From the NCBI GenBank assembly GCA_021734505.1, contig JAIPIT010000001.1, positions 1,693 to 65,692 of the forward strand: DNA of 64,000 nucleotides, read 5' to 3'. Source of the stretch: Fidelibacterota bacterium (GTDB taxonomy: Bacteria; Fidelibacterota; Fidelibacteria; Fidelibacterales; Fidelibacteraceae). Below are positions 17,908 to 58,115 of the stretch, piece by piece. The notes below the pieces were generated by a model, which worked only from the letters and a program-made list of their open reading frames with translations, did no database searches and was not told where the DNA came from. Numbering within the stretch: the first letter of the stretch is position 1; the number at the start of each line of letters is the position of its first letter. Both the position numbers and the translations under genes were made by a program.

Positions 17908-18183
17908 AGACAAATTCCAGGAGACAAGTAATGGCTTTTTTATAAAAGGATGCTTTTGACGGGATAACATGATCATAAGTGTTTCTTTTCTGACAAGATA
18001 ACAGGAAAAATCGGATATTTACAAAATCCCTATCTAGTAAATCCTGTAATCCCGTCAAACCACTATCTTGACAATCCTGTTATCCCGTCTAAAAACCCCG
18101 TCAAATACAGAGATCCCGCCATGGATATGCTCCGGCGGGAAACGGGATCTCTTTGATATATGTTATAACATGAAGAAGTTTAT

Positions 18184-19002
18184 TTAAACATCCTTTGCGC
18201 GATATTTATAAATTAGTGTGCCGCCAACAAAACAGCCTGCAGCAAAGAGCAGACCAAAAAGGATCCTATAATCACCCATTACCATGCTCATGTTTACCGT
18301 GTCGATATCATCAAGCCCCATATTACCGACCATTTTTCCAAGTGTAACAAATACATCCGGTAAGGTGATCGTATGTCTGAAGATGACCTCAATAATTGCA
18401 AATAAACCCTCAAGGATACCAAGTACAGCGGCACCCTTAAGTAAGGCGTTGTTCTTGAAGACCGCAGAAAGAAAATAGCACAACGAACCGAAGACCAAGA
18501 CAAGCTTAAGGTAGTTTAACCAGCCAAGAAAAGCTCCATACAGAGCCTGGCCAAGATAAAAGCCATCAACATAAAAAGCACTAACAATGGATAATAAGAG
18601 AGCAAAGATCAAACCGACACCAAGAAGCAAAATTGAGCTCGCATATACATGCATGAAATATTTCACGCCGGTCACTTTCCACACACTTGCCGGTTGGCAG
18701 CGAAAGAAAAGATCTGATCCGAGTTGCTTTTCCCTGTTCAAGCTTGTTTGGGCGCCCAAACCCATGAAAGCAAGGAAGATGATTGCAAATGAGAACATTA
18801 CACCGTACATCCCGATACGAAGCCCCATTGCACCTTCATCAATTCCACCATATACCACAATATTTGGGCTGTCAATGATGACCGCGACAAGCACAGCAAT
18901 TAATGATAGTCCGATCAAACCGGCTATGATCCAAACCGGCCACCAGTAGGATGACTTGCGTTTTTGATATTCTGTTAATAATAATGTTTTTATCTGATTC
19001 AT
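18184..19002 (-). CDS. ABC-2 type transporter permease
   Basis: Six hydrophobic segments; directly downstream of the ABC ATPase (14-nt gap). Confidence 0.6.
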   Translation of the reverse strand: MNQIKTLLLTEYQKRKSSYWWPVWIIAGLIGLSLIAVLVAVIIDSPNIVVYGGIDEGAMGLRIGMYGVMFSFAIIFLAFMGLGAQTSLNREKQLGSDLFFRCQPASVWKVTGVKYFMHVYASSILLLGVGLIFALLLSIVSAFYVDGFYLGQALYGAFLGWLNYLKLVLVFGSLCYFLSAVFKNNALLKGAAVLGILEGLFAIIEVIFRHTITLPDVFVTLGKMVGNMGLDDIDTVNMSMVMGDYRILFGLLFAAGCFVGGTLIYKYRAKDV

Positions 19003-19016
19003 TTTTTCATCCTTCC

Positions 19017-19856
19017 TTATTGATTGACCACAGCGACAAAGATATCGGATACACTTGGAACGGCGATGATTGCATCTGATAATTTAATATCACCTTCAAT
19101 CAGTCCGCGGACCTTCCCAAGAGAACGGCTTGTCGCTTTAGGGTTAAACGCCATCAAGTCTTGCTCACGGTCTGCGGAAACTTCAACAATGGACCAGTCC
19201 TTTTTTAATTTATCCACTGTTTCATGTAACTTAACTCGTCCGTGATCAATGAAGATAACATCATGGAGAATGTTTTCCACTTCGTCGACCTGATGAGTTG
19301 AAATGATCACAGTTTTAGTCTCGTCAAAGAACTCGCCAAGAAGCAGATCGTAGAATTCCTTGCGGAAAACGATATCCAAACCAAGAGTTGGTTCATCCAG
19401 AAGAAGAATATCAACATCTTTTGCCAGGGTTAACATAAGATAAAGTTTTGTTTTCATTCCCTTGGAAAGCGTTTTGACTTTTTGCTTGCGGGGAAGTTCG
19501 CTTTTCGCAAAAAGGCGCTCGGCTTTTTCCGCATTCCATGTTGGATTCATGCCTGCGGCATAATCCATGGTTTGTTGTACTGTTAAGCGTGGATCCAAAC
19601 CACTTACGTCCGGAATATAAGCGACCCGCGTATGAAGATCATATTTCCACTCTTTGACCGATTTCCCAAAGAACGCTATATCACCCTCATAGCGCAAAAA
19701 ATCAAGGAGGCATTTCAGAAATGTTGATTTTCCCGCCCCGTTTTTGCCCAATAGGCCAACTATTCGACCACGGGGAACCCGAAGATCAACATTTTCGAGC
19801 GCGCGTACCTGCTTATAGTCTTTTGTTAGCCCTTGAACGCTAATAACATGTTCCAT
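19017..19856 (-). CDS. ABC transporter ATP-binding protein
   Basis: Walker A GKNGAGKST, signature LSKGMKTK, Walker B LLLDEPTLGLD; AAGGAAA RBS. Confidence 0.9.
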   Translation of the reverse strand: MEHVISVQGLTKDYKQVRALENVDLRVPRGRIVGLLGKNGAGKSTFLKCLLDFLRYEGDIAFFGKSVKEWKYDLHTRVAYIPDVSGLDPRLTVQQTMDYAAGMNPTWNAEKAERLFAKSELPRKQKVKTLSKGMKTKLYLMLTLAKDVDILLLDEPTLGLDIVFRKEFYDLLLGEFFDETKTVIISTHQVDEVENILHDVIFIDHGRVKLHETVDKLKKDWSIVEVSADREQDLMAFNPKATSRSLGKVRGLIEGDIKLSDAIIAVPSVSDIFVAVVNQ

Positions 19857-19929: not shown

Positions 19930-20022
19930 TTAATATTTGTTGTCCACCCCTGGAAACATTTTCCGGATCAGTCTACTGTCGCGTTCGCGATTAAAAATAA
20001 TCGTTTTTGTTTTTGATAACAT
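19930..20022 (-). CDS. Micro-ORF P4, 30 aa: MLSKTKTIIFNRERDSRLIRKMFPGVDNKY; possible divergent member of the P1-P3 family
   Basis: ATG at 20022 and TAA at 19932-19930. Same size, basic character and position as P1-P3, with only weak similarity (LIRK versus SIRIIK). Confidence 0.35.
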   Translation of the reverse strand: MLSKTKTIIFNRERDSRLIRKMFPGVDNKY

Positions 20023-20031
20023 CTGATGATC

Positions 20032-20124
20032 CTACTTCACCGTTTTGATGATGCGGATCGACATTGCATTAACATAAGACATCGTTCTGCAATGTTGTTT
20101 CATCATTCCGCATTTACTAAACAT
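20032..20124 (-). CDS. Micro-ORF P3, 30 aa: MFSKCGMMKQHCRTMSYVNAMSIRIIKTVK
   Basis: AAGGATGG RBS; ATG at 20124; TAG at 20034-20032. Shares MFS... and the SYVxAMSIRI(I/V)K core with P1 and P2, differing mostly at third codon positions. Confidence 0.6.
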   Translation of the reverse strand: MFSKCGMMKQHCRTMSYVNAMSIRIIKTVK

Positions 20125-20160
20125 GGTTTCCATCCTTTTCTTTATGGATCGCTTGATCGC

Positions 20161-20250
20161 TTAGCTGACCGACTTAACGATCCGGATTGACATGGCCCGT
20201 ACATAGGACATGGAGTTGCTATGGCGTCTAATTAGATTGTTGCTAAACAT
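20161..20250 (-). CDS. Micro-ORF P2, 29 aa: MFSNNLIRRHSNSMSYVRAMSIRIVKSVS
   Basis: Purine-rich RBS (AAAGGGAAG); ATG at 20250; TAA at 20163-20161; paralogous to P1 and P3. Confidence 0.6.
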   Translation of the reverse strand: MFSNNLIRRHSNSMSYVRAMSIRIVKSVS

Positions 20251-20276
20251 TGTTCTTCCCTTTCAGTTATTGCCTG

Positions 20277-20302
20277 CCCTCCGAAGCTTTAGCGAAGGAG
20301 GG
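20277..20302 (+). repeat. Conserved-loop hairpin repeat: CCCTCC-GAAGCTTTAGCGAA-GGAGGG
   Basis: Perfect 6-bp stem and the family loop; sits in the spacer between micro-ORFs P1 and P2. Confidence 0.65.
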
Positions 20303-20344
20303 TCTCTTAAATCTTCTCTGTTTACCTTTCAGGCCATCCTGCCC

Positions 20345-20434
20345 TTATCGGGCAGCTTTGATGACACCGATTGACATTGCACGCACGTAGAGTAATGTGC
20401 TGTTGCGACGAGTTCTCAGTGTGTTCATAAACAT
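20345..20434 (-). CDS. Micro-ORF P1, 29 aa: MFMNTLRTRRNSTLLYVRAMSIGVIKAAR
   Basis: AGGAGA RBS 6 nt upstream of the ATG at 20434, only 24 nt after the gntR stop. The stop TAA (20347-20345) lies in the loop of hairpin CTGCCC/GGGCAG (20339-20355). Confidence 0.6.
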   Translation of the reverse strand: MFMNTLRTRRNSTLLYVRAMSIGVIKAAR

Positions 20435-20458: not shown

Positions 20459-20827
20459 TTATTTGTTAAAATTCTTTTCGATCATTTTGCAAAGTTCATC
20501 TTGGCTAAAATTCAACATCTTGGCCTGCCTGATCATGTCCGGAACGGTGACGTCTTCAAATTGAATAACACCGGATTCTTTTAAAACATCCTGAGCGGGA
20601 TCGGTTACATAATAACCTTGTCCACGCCGTTTTTCAAGAAGTCCCTCGTTGACAAGAAGCTGTGTGGCGTTTAATACTGTTTGAGGGTTCAGGCGGTACT
20701 CGGCAGACATCTGACGAACGGAGGGGATAGCTTCTCCGCCCTTCATGGCGCCGGACATGATCGACTCTCTTACGAGATCGGCCAGTTGGAGGTATATAGC
20801 TTTTGAACTGTCGAAGTTGGTACTCAT
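20459..20827 (-). CDS. GntR-family transcriptional regulator, YtrA-like short subfamily
   Basis: The wHTH AIPSVRQMSAEYRLNPQTVLNATQLLVNEGLLEKRRGQGYYV followed by a short C-terminal domain. Start set at MSTNFDSS. Confidence 0.85.
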   Translation of the reverse strand: MSTNFDSSKAIYLQLADLVRESIMSGAMKGGEAIPSVRQMSAEYRLNPQTVLNATQLLVNEGLLEKRRGQGYYVTDPAQDVLKESGVIQFEDVTVPDMIRQAKMLNFSQDELCKMIEKNFNK

Positions 20828-20867
20828 TGTCGTTCTCTTTTTGTTTCGTTTCTCACACCAGTATTCC

Positions 20868-20890
20868 AGTGTTCTACATAAGTATAACAC
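20868..20890. promoter_or_regulatory. Candidate GntR/YtrA operator: AGTGTTCTACATAAGTATAACAC (GTGTT-N-AACAC inverted repeat)
   Basis: Imperfect palindrome 41 nt upstream of the gntR start. A near-identical second copy lies at 21024-21045. Confidence 0.4.
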
Positions 20891-21023
20891 CATTACAGCA
20901 AACATGCAAGAAAAAAATGCAAATTTTTTTAAATATTTTAAGAAATTAACCCAATATCCTTTATTTATGCAGAATAAAAGGTGCGTAAATATATTATAAA
21001 AAACGTGCTTTTAGTAAAAAACA

Positions 21024-21045: not shown

Positions 21046-21446
21046 GCCGGTATATGGGCCGATAAACGGCAAATTATTTATAGAAAATCGGAAATAATAT
21101 TTTCCGTACAGACTCATAATCTTTACACTTCTCATTCTTATTTTCTTCAGAGCCCAGCCCCCTAAACCCCTAAACCATATTTCCTCGTAAACAGATCTCT
21201 TCGCTCCGCCATCTGCGGTGACCTTGGTCGGGATGGCAGACTATTTTATTTCTAAAACCGGATACCATAAACACTAACTTTACAACAACATATAGTATCT
21301 CTACAAAGGTGAGAATACCATAAAATGTATATCCATTCATTAACAGGCATTTATACCCAATTATGCACAAAAAAACATTGCTTTTCAGCAATTTATGCCA
21401 CATATTTCAGGGCTTTGTCTGAATATATGTGTTAAAGGAGAACAAG

Positions 21447-21590
21447 TTGAAAGAAACATATAATCCAAGTAATAGAAAACGGAAGAACAAACACGGTTTT
21501 CGTAAACGTATGGAATCTGCGGCTGGGCGCGCAATTCTGGCACGTAGAAGAAAAAAAGGACGGAAACGGTTGACTGTTTCTGATGAATGA
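21447..21590 (+). CDS. rpmH: 50S ribosomal protein L34
   Basis: TTG start after an AAAGGAG RBS. Translation (M)[46 protein letters not shown] matches the L34 consensus. Absent from the ORF track because it is under 60 aa. Confidence 0.9.
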
Positions 21591-21916
21591 GATCATTACT
21601 GAAGAAATCTGAGATCTTGAGAGAAAAAAGCGAGATCTCAAGCTTATTTGACAACGGGGAATGGAACAAGGGACGCTTTGTGAACATAGTATCCCAACCG
21701 GCAGAAAACCGTCGTGTTCTGTTTGCCATTGCGCGCCATTTAAAAGGCGCGGTTGTACGAAACAGAGGGAAACGTTACCTAAGGGAATGCTATCGCAACA
21801 ATAAGGAATGGTTTTCCTCTTTGTGTATATATGGATTAATTTTAAAAAATATGCCCCGCCACCATCCGGTGGATGCGATAAGGGCTGATCTGCAAGCACT
21901 GCTAAAAAATGATTAA
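21587..21916 (+). CDS. rnpA: Ribonuclease P protein component
   Basis: 109 aa basic protein ([12 protein letters not shown]), overlapping the rpmH stop, in the conserved rpmH-rnpA-yidD-yidC order. Confidence 0.8.
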
Positions 21917-22139
21917 GAAAATATTTCTCGCACTTGTCCGCTTTTATCAACGAGCTATATCGCCGTATACTGCACGCTCTTGCCGGTTTTATCCCACTTG
22001 TTCACAGTATACGTATGAAGCGATCCAGGAATTCGGAGCTTTAAAGGGCTTCTGGCTCGGACTAAAGCGACTTTCGAAGTGCCATCCCTTTCATCCGGGC
22101 GGCTACGACCCCGTTCATCATAAACATGACCACCAATAA
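21909..22139 (+). CDS. yidD: Membrane protein insertion efficiency factor YidD
   Basis: FYQRAISPY...[15 protein letters not shown]...[19 protein letters not shown]. Confidence 0.9.
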
Positions 22140-22150
22140 AGGAGATCATT

Positions 22151-23914
22151 TTGGATAGAAAAACTATAATAGCTTTTGTTGTGATCGGTATCATAATTAT
22201 TCTGATGCCATACTATCAAAAGATCTTTAACCCTGTGGACGAAACAGCAGTTGTTCAACAAGAAACAACCACGGCAATTCAACAAGAAGTCCCCACTCAA
22301 ACACCACCGCCCGACTATGTTCGCCCGCAAGTCAGTATTGAAACACGAGACCTAAATGTTAATGCCAAAGATGTGGTTATTGTCAATGATAAATTTGCAA
22401 TGCGTTTGTCGAATCTTGGCGGTGGTACTATTCGTGAATATGAATTGTTTGCTTATTCAGACAAAGATGGGAATCGTGTCCGACTGCTTCTGCCGGAAGC
22501 CGATGCAAACCTGAATATTGAATATACCAACTTATATCAGGATGTTTCCAACCTTGAGTACATTGCTTTCGATTGTCCACGCCTAGAGCGTTTAACAGAT
22601 GGAGACACCCTCTTGATCGAAGGTGAGACCACACTTTCGTATTCGGCATTGCCCCCGGATGGTATAAAAATTGAAAAAACGTTCACTTTTTATCCGGATC
22701 GCTATGATTTCCGGCTTGATGTCGCACTGGCGGATTACATGCAAAAAATGGCTGGACTTCGATACTCTTTGAATTGGAAAGATGGCTTTGCGTTAACGGA
22801 AGAAAATGTTGTTGACGATATCATGTATACAGGTGTTTTTGCCATGATGGGAGAAGAGTTGGTAAAACTTGAATCCCGCAAGGCGAAAAGCGGTGAGGGC
22901 ACGACACTGAATACCGACGGTCAGACAAATTGGCTGGCATTTAAATCAAAATATTTTACAGGGTTTATCGCCCCCATAGAAAGCAAGGGCATTCGTTCCG
23001 AGCTGATGCTTACAAAGGATAAAGATACACGCGATTTCTCCGCAGCAATAGATATGGGTTTAACAAAATCCAACTATCAACAGGATTCTTATATGATCGG
23101 TCTTGTACCGGCTGAAAAGAAACTCCTAAAATCTTATGGTATGGATCTGGATAAGACCATGAACTGGGGCGGACCGATCATTAAGCCTTTTTCAATCGGC
23201 CTGCATTGGTTGATGGCTTTTCTCTATGGATTGATCCCGAATTACGGTGTGGTTATTTTATTGATGTCCCTTATCGTCAAACTCATAACCTATCCCCTTA
23301 CCCATAAATCATATTCTTCAATGAAGCGCATGCAATTGGTACAGCCCAAGATCAAAGAATTGCAGGAAAAATATAAAAACAACAAAGAAGTTCTTCAGCA
23401 AAAAACAATGGCACTTTATAAAGAAGAAAAGGTCAACCCCATGGGTGGCTGTCTGCCGATGTTATTACAGCTTCCTGTTTTGTACGGACTGTTCATTATT
23501 TTCCGTACGGCTATAGAATTGCGCGGTGCACCTTTTATGCTTTGGATGAAAGATCTTTCAGCTCCCGATGCACTTTTTAGTTTTGGCGCAAACATTCCTC
23601 TTCTGGGAACAGATTTTAATATTCTTCCTATCCTGATGACCGTTTTGATGGTTGTCCAGCAGAAACTATCAGGTACGGGTGCCGGTGGAACCGACCAGCA
23701 GGCACAGCAGCAAAAAATGATGCAGTGGCTCATGCCGGCAATGATGTTCTTCCTCTTCTACAAATTCCCGTCAGGCTTGGTTCTTTACTATCTGACATTT
23801 AATGCACTGACTATCTTACAACAGAAGTACGTCATCAACAAAAAAGTTGAAAAGGATTTTACTGCGACCCATCCGAAAGTCGGCGTTACCGTAAAGTCAA
23901 AGAAGAAAAAATAA
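22151..23914 (+). CDS. yidC: Membrane protein insertase YidC
   Basis: Large periplasmic domain plus the 60 kDa IMP core (GVVILLMSLIVKLITYPLT, NPMGGCLPMLLQLPVLYGLF, PSGLVLYY). Confidence 0.9.
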   Translation: MDRKTIIAFVVIGIIIILMPYYQKIFNPVDETAVVQQETTTAIQQEVPTQTPPPDYVRPQVSIETRDLNVNAKDVVIVNDKFAMRLSNLGGGTIREYELFAYSDKDGNRVRLLLPEADANLNIEYTNLYQDVSNLEYIAFDCPRLERLTDGDTLLIEGETTLSYSALPPDGIKIEKTFTFYPDRYDFRLDVALADYMQKMAGLRYSLNWKDGFALTEENVVDDIMYTGVFAMMGEELVKLESRKAKSGEGTTLNTDGQTNWLAFKSKYFTGFIAPIESKGIRSELMLTKDKDTRDFSAAIDMGLTKSNYQQDSYMIGLVPAEKKLLKSYGMDLDKTMNWGGPIIKPFSIGLHWLMAFLYGLIPNYGVVILLMSLIVKLITYPLTHKSYSSMKRMQLVQPKIKELQEKYKNNKEVLQQKTMALYKEEKVNPMGGCLPMLLQLPVLYGLFIIFRTAIELRGAPFMLWMKDLSAPDALFSFGANIPLLGTDFNILPILMTVLMVVQQKLSGTGAGGTDQQAQQQKMMQWLMPAMMFFLFYKFPSGLVLYYLTFNALTILQQKYVINKKVEKDFTATHPKVGVTVKSKKKK

Positions 23915-32436: not shown

Positions 32437-32911
32437 TCATAGCGTTCATTTTGAAGCTATTCAACTTTCACATGTGTGCAAATTACCCACATCTTTTCGA
32501 TTGACCCCGACGGGGTCAAACAAGAGTATATCAATTTTCCACTTACCCCACAACCCCGTAAGGGGTTGAACAATGACTTTGATTGTTCGCCTGCCCTTCG
32601 AAGCGCCCCCCCCGGAGCGTAGTATGGAATGCTCACATGCTCTATTGTTCATTATTCAAAAAAGCGACAATCTCATTTATTATGCATAAAAAACTATCCT
32701 CACAGAGATCCCGGATAAACAATCCACCGGATTATTTTCCGGGATGACTATGGGTGGGGGCTTTTCTACTATTATTTGAAAAATCTACGTAATCTGTGAA
32801 TAGCATATTTGTTTGTTTTACTTGATTATCAATTGACAAATTGCATTTCCACCGAAAAGATTGTATTTTCTCTCCGATATATTGGCATTAATTATAAATG
32901 ATGGAGTAAAC

Positions 32912-53320: not shown

Positions 53321-53443
53321 ATTTGTTCCTTATAATTTTCCTACTCGTATGGTTTTTCGGCTCTACCCCGTTTATTAAAGTGGGTTCTGGACTCCACATC
53401 TTCATTTTTATATTTTGGGGATAACAAGACAGGAATCCCTAAA

Positions 53444-57946: not shown

Positions 57947-58019
57947 ATAAATTCCTTTTCTAATGACAACGCTTTATGGTCTCTTGCAAACATCAAATAT
58001 TTTTATATGGGCGGGAGAA

Positions 58020-58115
58020 GTTTATAACGTTTTGACCTCACCGGCCCACATCATTTTGCCACCGTAGCGTCACTCGGTTGGCGTTCCATTGAAGGAACTC
58101 TTGATGCGGGATGAA
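58020..58115 (-). promoter_or_regulatory. Candidate SAM-responsive riboswitch (SAM-I/IV-like three-way junction) in the metK leader
   Basis: On the minus strand: P1 CCCGCAUC/GAUGUGGG, J1/2 AAGAG, P2 GUUCC-UUCAAU-GGAAC, P3 GCCAACC...GGUGGC, then AAAAU. AUCAAGAG and GCCAACC..GGUGGCAAAAU resemble the SAM-I core AUCAAGAG and GCAACC..GGUGCCAAUUCC. Confidence 0.4.

Follow-up and report, generated by a model that had tools for sequence, protein, structure and literature searches.

We analyzed a 64,000-nucleotide (nt) stretch of a Fidelibacterota genome (contig JAIPIT010000001.1), called here the window, whose minus strand carries a regulator gene and two ATP-binding cassette (ABC) transporter genes with several very small open reading frames (ORFs) between them. 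The first gene, gntR (20459..20827), encodes a YtrA-type GntR repressor of 122 amino acids (aa) made of a winged helix and a short C-terminal tail. The transporter consists of an ATPase of the ABC-2 or type V exporter class (19017..19856, 279 aa) and a lineage-specific, ABC-2-like membrane protein as the permease (18184..19002, 272 aa). The 602-nt gap between gntR and the ATPase gene holds three micro-ORFs, P1 (20345..20434, 29 aa, MFMNTLRTRRNSTLLYVRAMSIGVIKAAR), P2 (20161..20250, 29 aa, MFSNNLIRRHSNSMSYVRAMSIRIVKSVS), and P3 (20032..20124, 30 aa, MFSKCGMMKQHCRTMSYVNAMSIRIIKTVK), followed by P4 (19930..20022, 30 aa), whose coding status is doubtful. P1, P2, and P3 are real protein-coding genes that belong to one lineage-restricted family. 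A preliminary description of this DNA, made from its letters alone, had located them in their gntR/ABC context with the right coordinates and peptide sequences, including the 24-nt gap after the gntR stop codon at 20459, save that it started P3 at 20133. Orthologues fix the start at the MF codons, i.e., at the ATG at 20124.

That P1 to P3 are coding was shown by the pattern of substitutions among homologues. Pooled Nei-Gojobori ratios of nonsynonymous to synonymous differences (pN/pS) in the annotated frame were 0.18 for P1, 0.22 for P2, 0.14 for P3, and 0.29 for a shorter type of the family described below, bearing in mind that pS values of 0.4 to 0.7 are near saturation and that pairwise counts are not phylogenetically independent. 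In contrast, the shifted frames of the same micro-ORF sequences gave ratios of 0.97 to 2.7 (1.1 and 2.7 for P1). For comparison, the flanking genes had ratios of 0.17 (gntR) and 0.13 (ATPase). Variable columns were concentrated at codon position 3 (16, 25, 19, and 17 columns, versus 5 to 14 at positions 1 and 2), which bears out, on aligned homologues, the codon-phase bias first seen among the three paralogues; the codon triplets quoted for their core at that stage are exact, and their common motif reads MF...YV.AMSI..[IV]K. When the gaps of four loci were aligned, the nucleotide identity of P1 to P3 was 82 to 86% among the three close loci, versus 47 to 54% for the spacers, so that the micro-ORFs stand out as islands of conservation well above chance expectation. 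The micro-ORF frames are intact in every orthologous gap examined, about 30 loci.

Translation signals agree with this assignment. A Shine-Dalgarno (SD)-like motif was found at the scanned start of 48 of the 52 family members; for the four others the scan had chosen an upstream ATG, and their MF start does have such a motif. The ribosome-binding sites proposed for P1 to P3 thus extend to essentially every family member. The motif of P1 is taggag, and the ribosome-binding cassette TAACTGAAAGGGA that precedes P2 recurs ahead of many members. An initiation cassette, TAACTGAAAGGGACAAAA-ATG, likewise stands before many short-type and P2-type members (loci L002, L006, L019, and L025, and 20251-20270 on the minus strand of the window), arguing that the duplicated unit includes the ribosome-binding site.

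These data bear on the possibility that the copies are not genes at all but operator sites in DNA, or an RNA element, with only the look of ORFs. The copies do resemble one another in nucleotides, ribosome-binding cassette included, and the fold of the entire gap is somewhat more stable than that of shuffled sequence (z = -2.4, 20 shuffles). However, substitutions pile up at third codon positions, pN/pS is low in the annotated frame alone, Rfam at gathering thresholds gives nothing in the micro-ORF region, and the operator motif of the GntR repressor (see below) does not occur in the gap. A noncoding origin of the repeats is therefore effectively excluded. The low in-frame ratios, the intact frames, and the SD motifs strongly uphold the earlier proposal that a peptide, and not a repeat in DNA or RNA, is under selection. 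Public gene calls place a 196-aa gene across the gntR-ATPase gap at two loci (L038:3374-3964 and L040:2874-3464). This call masks three micro-ORFs and is spurious in their zone, where pN/pS is 0.23 in the micro-ORF frame versus 1.83 in the 196-aa frame.

The distribution of the family was determined by two routes. Sixteen genome loci were fetched by means of the permease alone, and synteny of gntR, gap, ATPase gene, and permease gene, in some cases with birA, is kept among them. Twelve of these loci include the gntR-ATPase gap, and all 12 gaps hold one to four ATG-initiated ORFs of a single family. For a context-blind test, the core was back-translated to a degenerate DNA pattern with which 241 million metagenome records were scanned. 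All 11 matches lay between a gntR orthologue and an ATPase orthologue; conservation of the core among these matches follows from the design of the pattern, whereas that of the context does not. Family members with intact frames thus co-occur with GntR-ABC pairs in both samples. In L017, loss of the stop codon extends the member to 38 aa. GntR homologues at 61 to 64% identity gave access to six further loci with two or three diverged members each, next to a permease of 275 to 277 aa without a Pfam match. No second copy of the micro-ORFs was found elsewhere in the 64,000 nt of the window.

The family core is Y-x3-[LM]-S-I-R-x-[IV]-[KR]. Members of the long type (26 to 31 aa), with the consensus MF..-L..RH....YV.AMSIRI[IV]K[SP].[KR], split into P1-, P2-, and P3-like paralogues. 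Orthologues of P1 are present in L003, L005, L007, L018, and L025, and the P3 type occurs at 10 loci. The P2 type is the most widespread, with 14 loci that include paralogous operons called here type B. A short type of 18 to 19 aa, MKYLKTYRYHLSIRNVRG and variants with an HLSIR core in common, is not found in the window. It replaces or joins the long types at eight loci (L002, L003, L006, L008, L016, L019, L020, and L025) and is the sole member in L008 (L008:2982-3038). Copy number thus varies from one to four per operon, and each paralogue keeps its own conserved N-terminal half. Both features suggest that the peptides behave like gene products in their own right.

Type-B operons have a permease only about 44% identical to that of the window, together with a P2-type peptide. 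Between that peptide and the ATPase they carry another ORF of 78 to 94 aa (82 aa in four loci; ...CCPFLTRARFYKTQSLKD...MMYYL), e.g., at L022:10074-10322 and also in L016, L021, L023, L024, and L026 to L028. The ORF has an in-frame pN/pS of 0.31 and lacks significant matches in Pfam or NCBIfam. Remnants of this gene may survive as the P4 ORF of the window and as the final small ORFs in L010 and L011 (QTIFYPD). P4 had been proposed as a fourth, weakly similar member of the family, which is not borne out. It is intact only in L001, the window's own contig, and in L006, L007, L018, and L020, its nearest relatives, whereas a 1-nt indel breaks the frame from the ATG in L003, L004, and L019. The nucleotide identity of P4, 52 to 69%, lies between the ORF and spacer levels. 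In our view P4 is doubtful; it would be a copy in decay or what is left of a second family of small ORFs.

Two secondary structures had been described in the gap. A hairpin (CCCTCC...GGAGGG, 20277..20302, minus strand) does exist in the P1-P2 spacer, but the term dispersed repeat does not apply: exact searches, gapped searches, and blastn-short all detected this copy alone in the window, and orthologous spacers lack it. A 16-nt partial match near 32589 was considered as a second copy and rejected, as it is not the same hairpin. The P1-P2 spacer folds no better than shuffled sequence (z = -0.1), and the hairpin is probably incidental. The other structure, a predicted stem-loop (CTGCCC/GGGCAG, 20339..20355, minus strand) that includes the P1 stop codon, is also present; by eye, relatives retain only a 4-bp version of it in the alignment.

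The operon lies at a conserved site. An rpmH-rnpA-yidD-yidC cluster (window 21429-23914, plus strand; identified by eye from ORF translations) adjoins it and is divergent from it, and birA is the next gene after the permease gene on the minus strand. The same rpmH-rnpA-yidD-yidC neighborhood recurs in L031, L034, and L035, indicating that the gntR operon occupies a site in the core genome. As the preliminary description stated, no modification enzyme is adjacent. A terminator-like hairpin followed by a T-run, found by consensus scan 72 nt past the permease stop codon (18096..18112, minus strand), is a possible end of the operon. At four of the more distant loci (GntR at 61 to 64% identity), DUF2807 genes follow the permease gene in place of birA, two in each of L030 and L034 and at least one in each of L038 and L040. 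Far from the operon, Rfam reported two matches above the gathering score on the minus strand of the window, a DUF805 RNA motif (53334-53402, 76 bits) and a SAM-I/IV riboswitch (58018-58112, 53 bits).

The regulator matches the Pfam GntR domain (PF00392, E = 1.8e-12, residues 12 to 74). It has the features of the YtrA subfamily, namely, an N-terminal winged helix followed by a very short C-terminal domain of about 50 aa, without a ligand-binding domain. Its homologues are 120 to 125 aa long, one of them labeled YhcF in one source, and the top PDB matches are short GntR-family proteins of 113 to 129 aa (3tqn, 2du9/2ek5, 3neu, and 3ic7). The best full-length NCBIfam match is PmtR (NF047563), at 52.8 bits, under the cut-off of 200. 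A longer, 148-aa version of the protein that starts at 20905 (additional segment 20828-20905, minus strand) would overlap the conserved promoter and operator; homologues fix the start at 20827.

Upstream of gntR we identified a promoter and operator region (20861..20909, minus strand) with TTGCAT (20904-20909) and TATACT (20881-20886) separated by 17 nt. A palindrome, GTGTTATAC-N4-GTAGAACAC, at 20869-20890 overlaps the -10 box, and the predicted 22-bp operator reads GTGTTATACTTATGTAGAACAC. The 49 nt upstream of gntR are near-invariant in 18 + 6 aligned loci. The window and each of 16 matching loci contain a single copy of the operator pattern, which is never inside the gntR-ATPase gap. Given these sequence features, the YtrA-type GntR probably binds the upstream palindrome. 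A consensus scan of the gap revealed no terminator or promoter of note. As the sole conserved promoter/operator precedes gntR and no internal terminator is conserved, the single transcript proposed earlier is plausible, and we infer that one autorepressed transcript carries the repressor, the peptides, and the pump.

The ATPase matches Pfam ABC_tran (E = 3.7e-27). Its best NCBIfam match is PmtA (NF047565), at 160.9 bits, under the cut-off of 350, followed by DrrA, GldA, and a lantibiotic-protection ATPase; PDB matches include ABCA1, Rv1218c, and NosF. For the permease, 28 homologues were found, the named ones in metagenome-assembled genomes (MAGs) of Candidatus Marinimicrobia, Neomarinimicrobiota, or Fidelibacterota. 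Some members have weak matches to ABC2_membrane_4 and _5. An AlphaFold2 model of the permease is helical throughout at low confidence (predicted local distance difference test score [pLDDT], 59), and its top Foldseek matches, NosY, PmtCD, ABCG, and TarG, were not significant. The model is thus a weak pointer to an ABC-2 or type V fold.

The position of SD-bearing micro-ORFs upstream of transporter genes raises the question of whether they act in cis, as leader or arrest peptides whose C-terminal core stalls the ribosome that makes them while the N-terminal half senses a signal, so that they set ABC gene expression. SpeFL and TnaC are of this kind. They too are small SD-bearing ORFs (24 to 34 codons) upstream of metabolic or transport genes, and their products are basic, with conservation in the C-terminal part near the stop codon. 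In the micro-ORF peptides, the N-terminal half varies while the C-terminal core, near the end of the ORF, is conserved; every ORF has a strong SD sequence, and the composition is basic and polar like that of SpeFL (bioRxiv 10.1101/604074). The block of promoter, gntR, and peptide described below would moreover act as a portable 5′ regulatory module. However, SpeFL and TnaC are single-copy leaders that operate through Rho-dependent termination, whereas one to four diverged copies in series, atypical for leader peptides, are found here. No conserved terminator, hairpin, or C-rich/G-poor tract was detected between the peptides and the ATPase gene, and no hairpin recurs past the stop codons. The spacers to the ATPase gene (28 to 192 nt) are A-rich and not conserved, with C/G ratios of 0.37 to 1.7, and do not have the composition of a Rho utilization (rut) site. 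There is no fixed register either, as the invariant Arg of the SIR core is located 5, 6, or 7 codons from the stop. In addition, the N-terminal halves are strongly selected within each paralogue, and in type-B operons the 82-aa ORF, itself under purifying selection, sits between the peptide and the ATPase. We therefore consider a cis-acting role quite unlikely.

A comparison of related operons shows what the peptides travel with. Sister operons with a GntR at about 50% identity (L029, L032, L033, L036, L037, and L039), several of them from MAGs labeled Marinimicrobia, contain no micro-ORFs. Their gntR stop codon overlaps the ATPase start codon, leaving no gap, and their permease is a different one of 319 to 332 aa. 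The operator is nevertheless kept upstream of these peptide-free operons, as GTGTTATA(C/G)T...GTAGAACAC. In L032 and L033, a Yip1 gene and an OEP outer-membrane gene lie downstream of the sister operon. The micro-ORFs co-occur with the family of 272- to 277-aa permeases, that of type B included.

Within the peptide-bearing operons, other comparisons link the peptides to the regulator. In genome OY781066.1, a block that comprises the promoter, gntR, and a short-type peptide is 98.9% identical over 547 nt between two paralogous operons (L008:2505-3050 versus L016:2072-2618) and ends 12 nt past the peptide stop codon, while the ATPases are 70% identical. This pattern indicates a recent gene conversion of the 5′ module, peptide included. 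Between types A and B, P2 (83% identical) similarly tracks GntR (82 to 87%), unlike the permeases (~44%), and synonymous divergence is lower for gntR and the peptides (0.4 to 0.6) than for the ATPase (0.7 to 0.77). These observations would be expected if the peptides were intracellular regulatory micro-proteins, i.e., anti-repressors or cofactors of the YtrA-type GntR or modulators of the ATPase, that form with the repressor a portable module placed before different pumps. No small-molecule ligand has been assigned to YtrA repressors (bioRxiv 10.64898/2026.02.18.706565), peptides release PmtR from DNA, and the micro-ORF products appear too polar and basic for membrane insertion. Conversely, the same GntR clade and operator work without peptides in the sister operons, the presence of peptides follows the permease family rather than the regulator, and co-conversion with gntR can be explained by simple adjacency. 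Without its removal by the pump, a co-transcribed anti-repressor would also have no evident input signal. A purely intracellular regulatory function is thus possible but rather unlikely.

We then considered the properties of the peptides. The long forms have a net charge of +5 to +8, except for one member (L030_b) at +4, and the short type has a charge of +3 to +5. Asp and Glu together represent 0.5% of residues, and hydrophobic residues represent about 45%. The mean Eisenberg hydrophobicity (H) is about -0.1, the hydrophobic moment is 0.13 to 0.48, and the grand average of hydropathy of the long forms ranges from -0.63 to +0.45, with no long hydrophobic run seen. The early portrayal of the peptides as basic, without signal peptide or transmembrane segment, thus holds for the family. 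From an alignment of three sequences, AlphaFold2 predicted a helix over residues 7 to 29 of P3 (mean pLDDT, 71). Metal binding by the C-x6-C pair of P3 was discarded, as the cysteines are not conserved in L010 to L012. The peptides lack the hallmarks of precursors of ribosomally synthesized and posttranslationally modified peptides, with no modification enzyme or protease adjacent and no leader/core layout, and they lack the hydrophobic transmembrane segment typical of type I toxins or YtrG-like proteins. They are predicted from their sequences to be leaderless, unmodified, helix-prone peptides.

The absence of a recognizable family, noted at the outset, was confirmed in Pfam, NCBIfam, and PADLOC, and the peptides had no match among PDB sequences, plasmids, or phages. 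A HMMER search of 1.84 billion representative proteins retrieved five true members of 29 to 35 aa and two repeat artifacts. By exact look-up, a few members are present in public gene calls as unnamed hypothetical proteins, but P1 to P3 of the window are not among them.

With about 45% hydrophobic residues and a predicted helix, the peptides may be regarded as similar to antimicrobial peptides, which suggests a self-toxic module of the toxin-antitoxin or bacteriocin-immunity type, in which the pump would provide immunity only and the peptides would have no regulatory role. Their cationic, helix-prone nature fits generic antimicrobial-peptide criteria, and the ATPase class includes lantibiotic-protection pumps. 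The layout also recalls leaderless multipeptide bacteriocins, in which three or four tandem peptides of ~30 aa accompany a regulator and an ABC transporter (bioRxiv 10.64898/2026.09.04.749385; PMC6131525). Aureocin A70, garvicin KS, and the cereucins likewise comprise three or four homologous, cationic, leaderless peptides encoded in tandem. However, their clusters have a Cro/C1-type regulator, a fused MDL-type ABC transporter, a separate immunity gene, and several transcription units, and the characterized members are from Gram-positive bacteria, one example being plasmid borne. In contrast, the locus described here is a single operon with a YtrA-type GntR and a two-component ABC-2 pump at a syntenic core site. 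The profile search of 1.84 billion proteins revealed no homology to leaderless bacteriocins, nor did the peptides prove homologous to any known bacteriocin or toxin. The peptides have no transmembrane segment, a separate immunity gene is not present, and conservation is high over deep divergence at a site that is not an accessory island. A self-toxic module is therefore very unlikely.

The reading that we favor, still tentatively and by analogy with the PSM-Pmt-PmtR system, is that leaderless peptides are co-expressed with a pump-repressor pair that exports or senses them. In Staphylococcus aureus, phenol-soluble modulins (PSMs) bind the YtrA-type repressor PmtR and thereby derepress their own exporter (PMC5080381). 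Of the functions put forward in the preliminary description, namely, pump cargo or immunity, regulatory partner, and toxin-like module, we favor a role as cargo or inducer, as the micro-ORF products are found with a single permease family. In addition, PmtR is the best full-length named match of the regulator and PmtA the top-scoring one of the ATPase, albeit below the cut-offs. In such a mechanism, GntR would bind the palindrome and repress the whole operon, so that peptides and pump would always be made together. The ABC-2 pump would take the peptides out of the cytoplasm or the inner membrane, providing export and protection of the producer. Once outside, the peptides might be antimicrobial, envelope active, or signaling molecules. 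The peptide load would then feed back on the repressor, possibly by direct binding, as PSMs bind PmtR. Alternatively, flux through the pump might sequester the repressor on the ATPase, as reported for MbrR, a YtrA repressor that its ABC ATPase retains while the pump is transporting peptides (bioRxiv 10.64898/2026.02.18.706565).

Several features are common to the two systems. In both, a short YtrA-type GntR gene comes first in an operon with an ABC-2 exporter, and the peptides are unmodified products of 20 to 30 aa that lack a signal peptide and come from tandem genes with their own ribosome-binding sites. Among named families, PmtR is the sole near-full-length match of the regulator, and PmtA is the top match of the ATPase. 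There is also precedent for peptide handling by such pumps in the lantibiotic-protection members of the ATPase class. Nevertheless, the systems differ in important respects. The Pmt exporter consists of two ATPases and two permeases (pmtABCD) rather than one of each, and the PSM genes are located elsewhere on the chromosome rather than inside the operon. No sequence similarity was seen between PSMs and the micro-ORF peptides. The PSMs have a mean H of +0.12 to +0.54, a charge of +1 to +2, and a moment of 0.40 to 0.60, versus about -0.1, +5 to +8, and 0.13 to 0.48 here. The PSM host is Gram positive, and the host here is a Marinimicrobia bacterium.

Other systems resemble the operon in its regulator and pump. 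MbrR-MbrAB and YtrA-YtrBCDEF similarly combine a YtrA repressor, an ABC ATPase, a permease, and a palindromic operator. They are autoregulated and respond to cationic peptides (bioRxiv 10.64898/2026.02.18.706565), both of which may also hold for the operon of the window. What they sense is foreign bacteriocins or antibiotics, and they contain no peptide gene, in contrast to the operon of the window. The small YtrG protein of Bacillus subtilis is a transmembrane protein rather than a soluble, basic peptide (PMC12772383).

A number of observations weigh against the export or sensing of the peptides by the pump-repressor pair. The peptides are far less hydrophobic than PSMs or delta-toxin and only moderately amphipathic, and the PmtR and PmtA matches, at 52.8 versus 200 and 160.9 versus 350 bits, are far below the curated equivalog cut-offs. 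Marinimicrobia are a diderm phylum, but no outer-membrane component is encoded near the operon. It is unusual for secreted toxins to be very conserved and to lie at a syntenic core locus (rpmH-rnpA-yidC, operon, birA), as the peptides do. A single P2-type peptide is common to two operons with permeases that are only about 44% identical. Finally, the contrast in OY781066.1 between the block that carries the peptide (98.9%) and the ATPases (70%) implies that the regulator, rather than the pump, is the closer partner of the peptide.

A more specific proposal, which we regard as unlikely, is that the micro-proteins are dedicated ligands of a YtrA repressor that lacks a ligand domain. The pump would set their cytoplasmic level, creating a feedback or quorum-type switch for which P1 to P3 and the short form would represent graded or distinct inputs. 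If true, the switch, in a phylum of the Gram-negative type, would be the first of its kind to carry the peptide genes within the operon, and it would offer an answer to the question of what YtrA regulators sense.

The micro-ORFs represent an annotation gap, as the family has no entry in the libraries searched and as a gene caller in two genomes gave the spurious 196-aa gene in its stead. Sequence comparisons thus identify a conserved micro-protein family, new to family libraries, that resides in a YtrA-ABC operon and would be a variant on the theme of peptide, ABC pump, and YtrA repressor. YtrA-type repressors are widespread and usually found beside ABC pumps, and the sole direct case of a peptide ligand is that of PSMs and PmtR in staphylococci. 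The operon offers a natural system with candidate peptide partners built into it, an invariant 22-bp operator, and peptide-free control operons in sister lineages. It bears on whether peptides are the missing signal of YtrA regulators and on whether leaderless cationic peptides are made in an uncultured phylum that is abundant in the environment.

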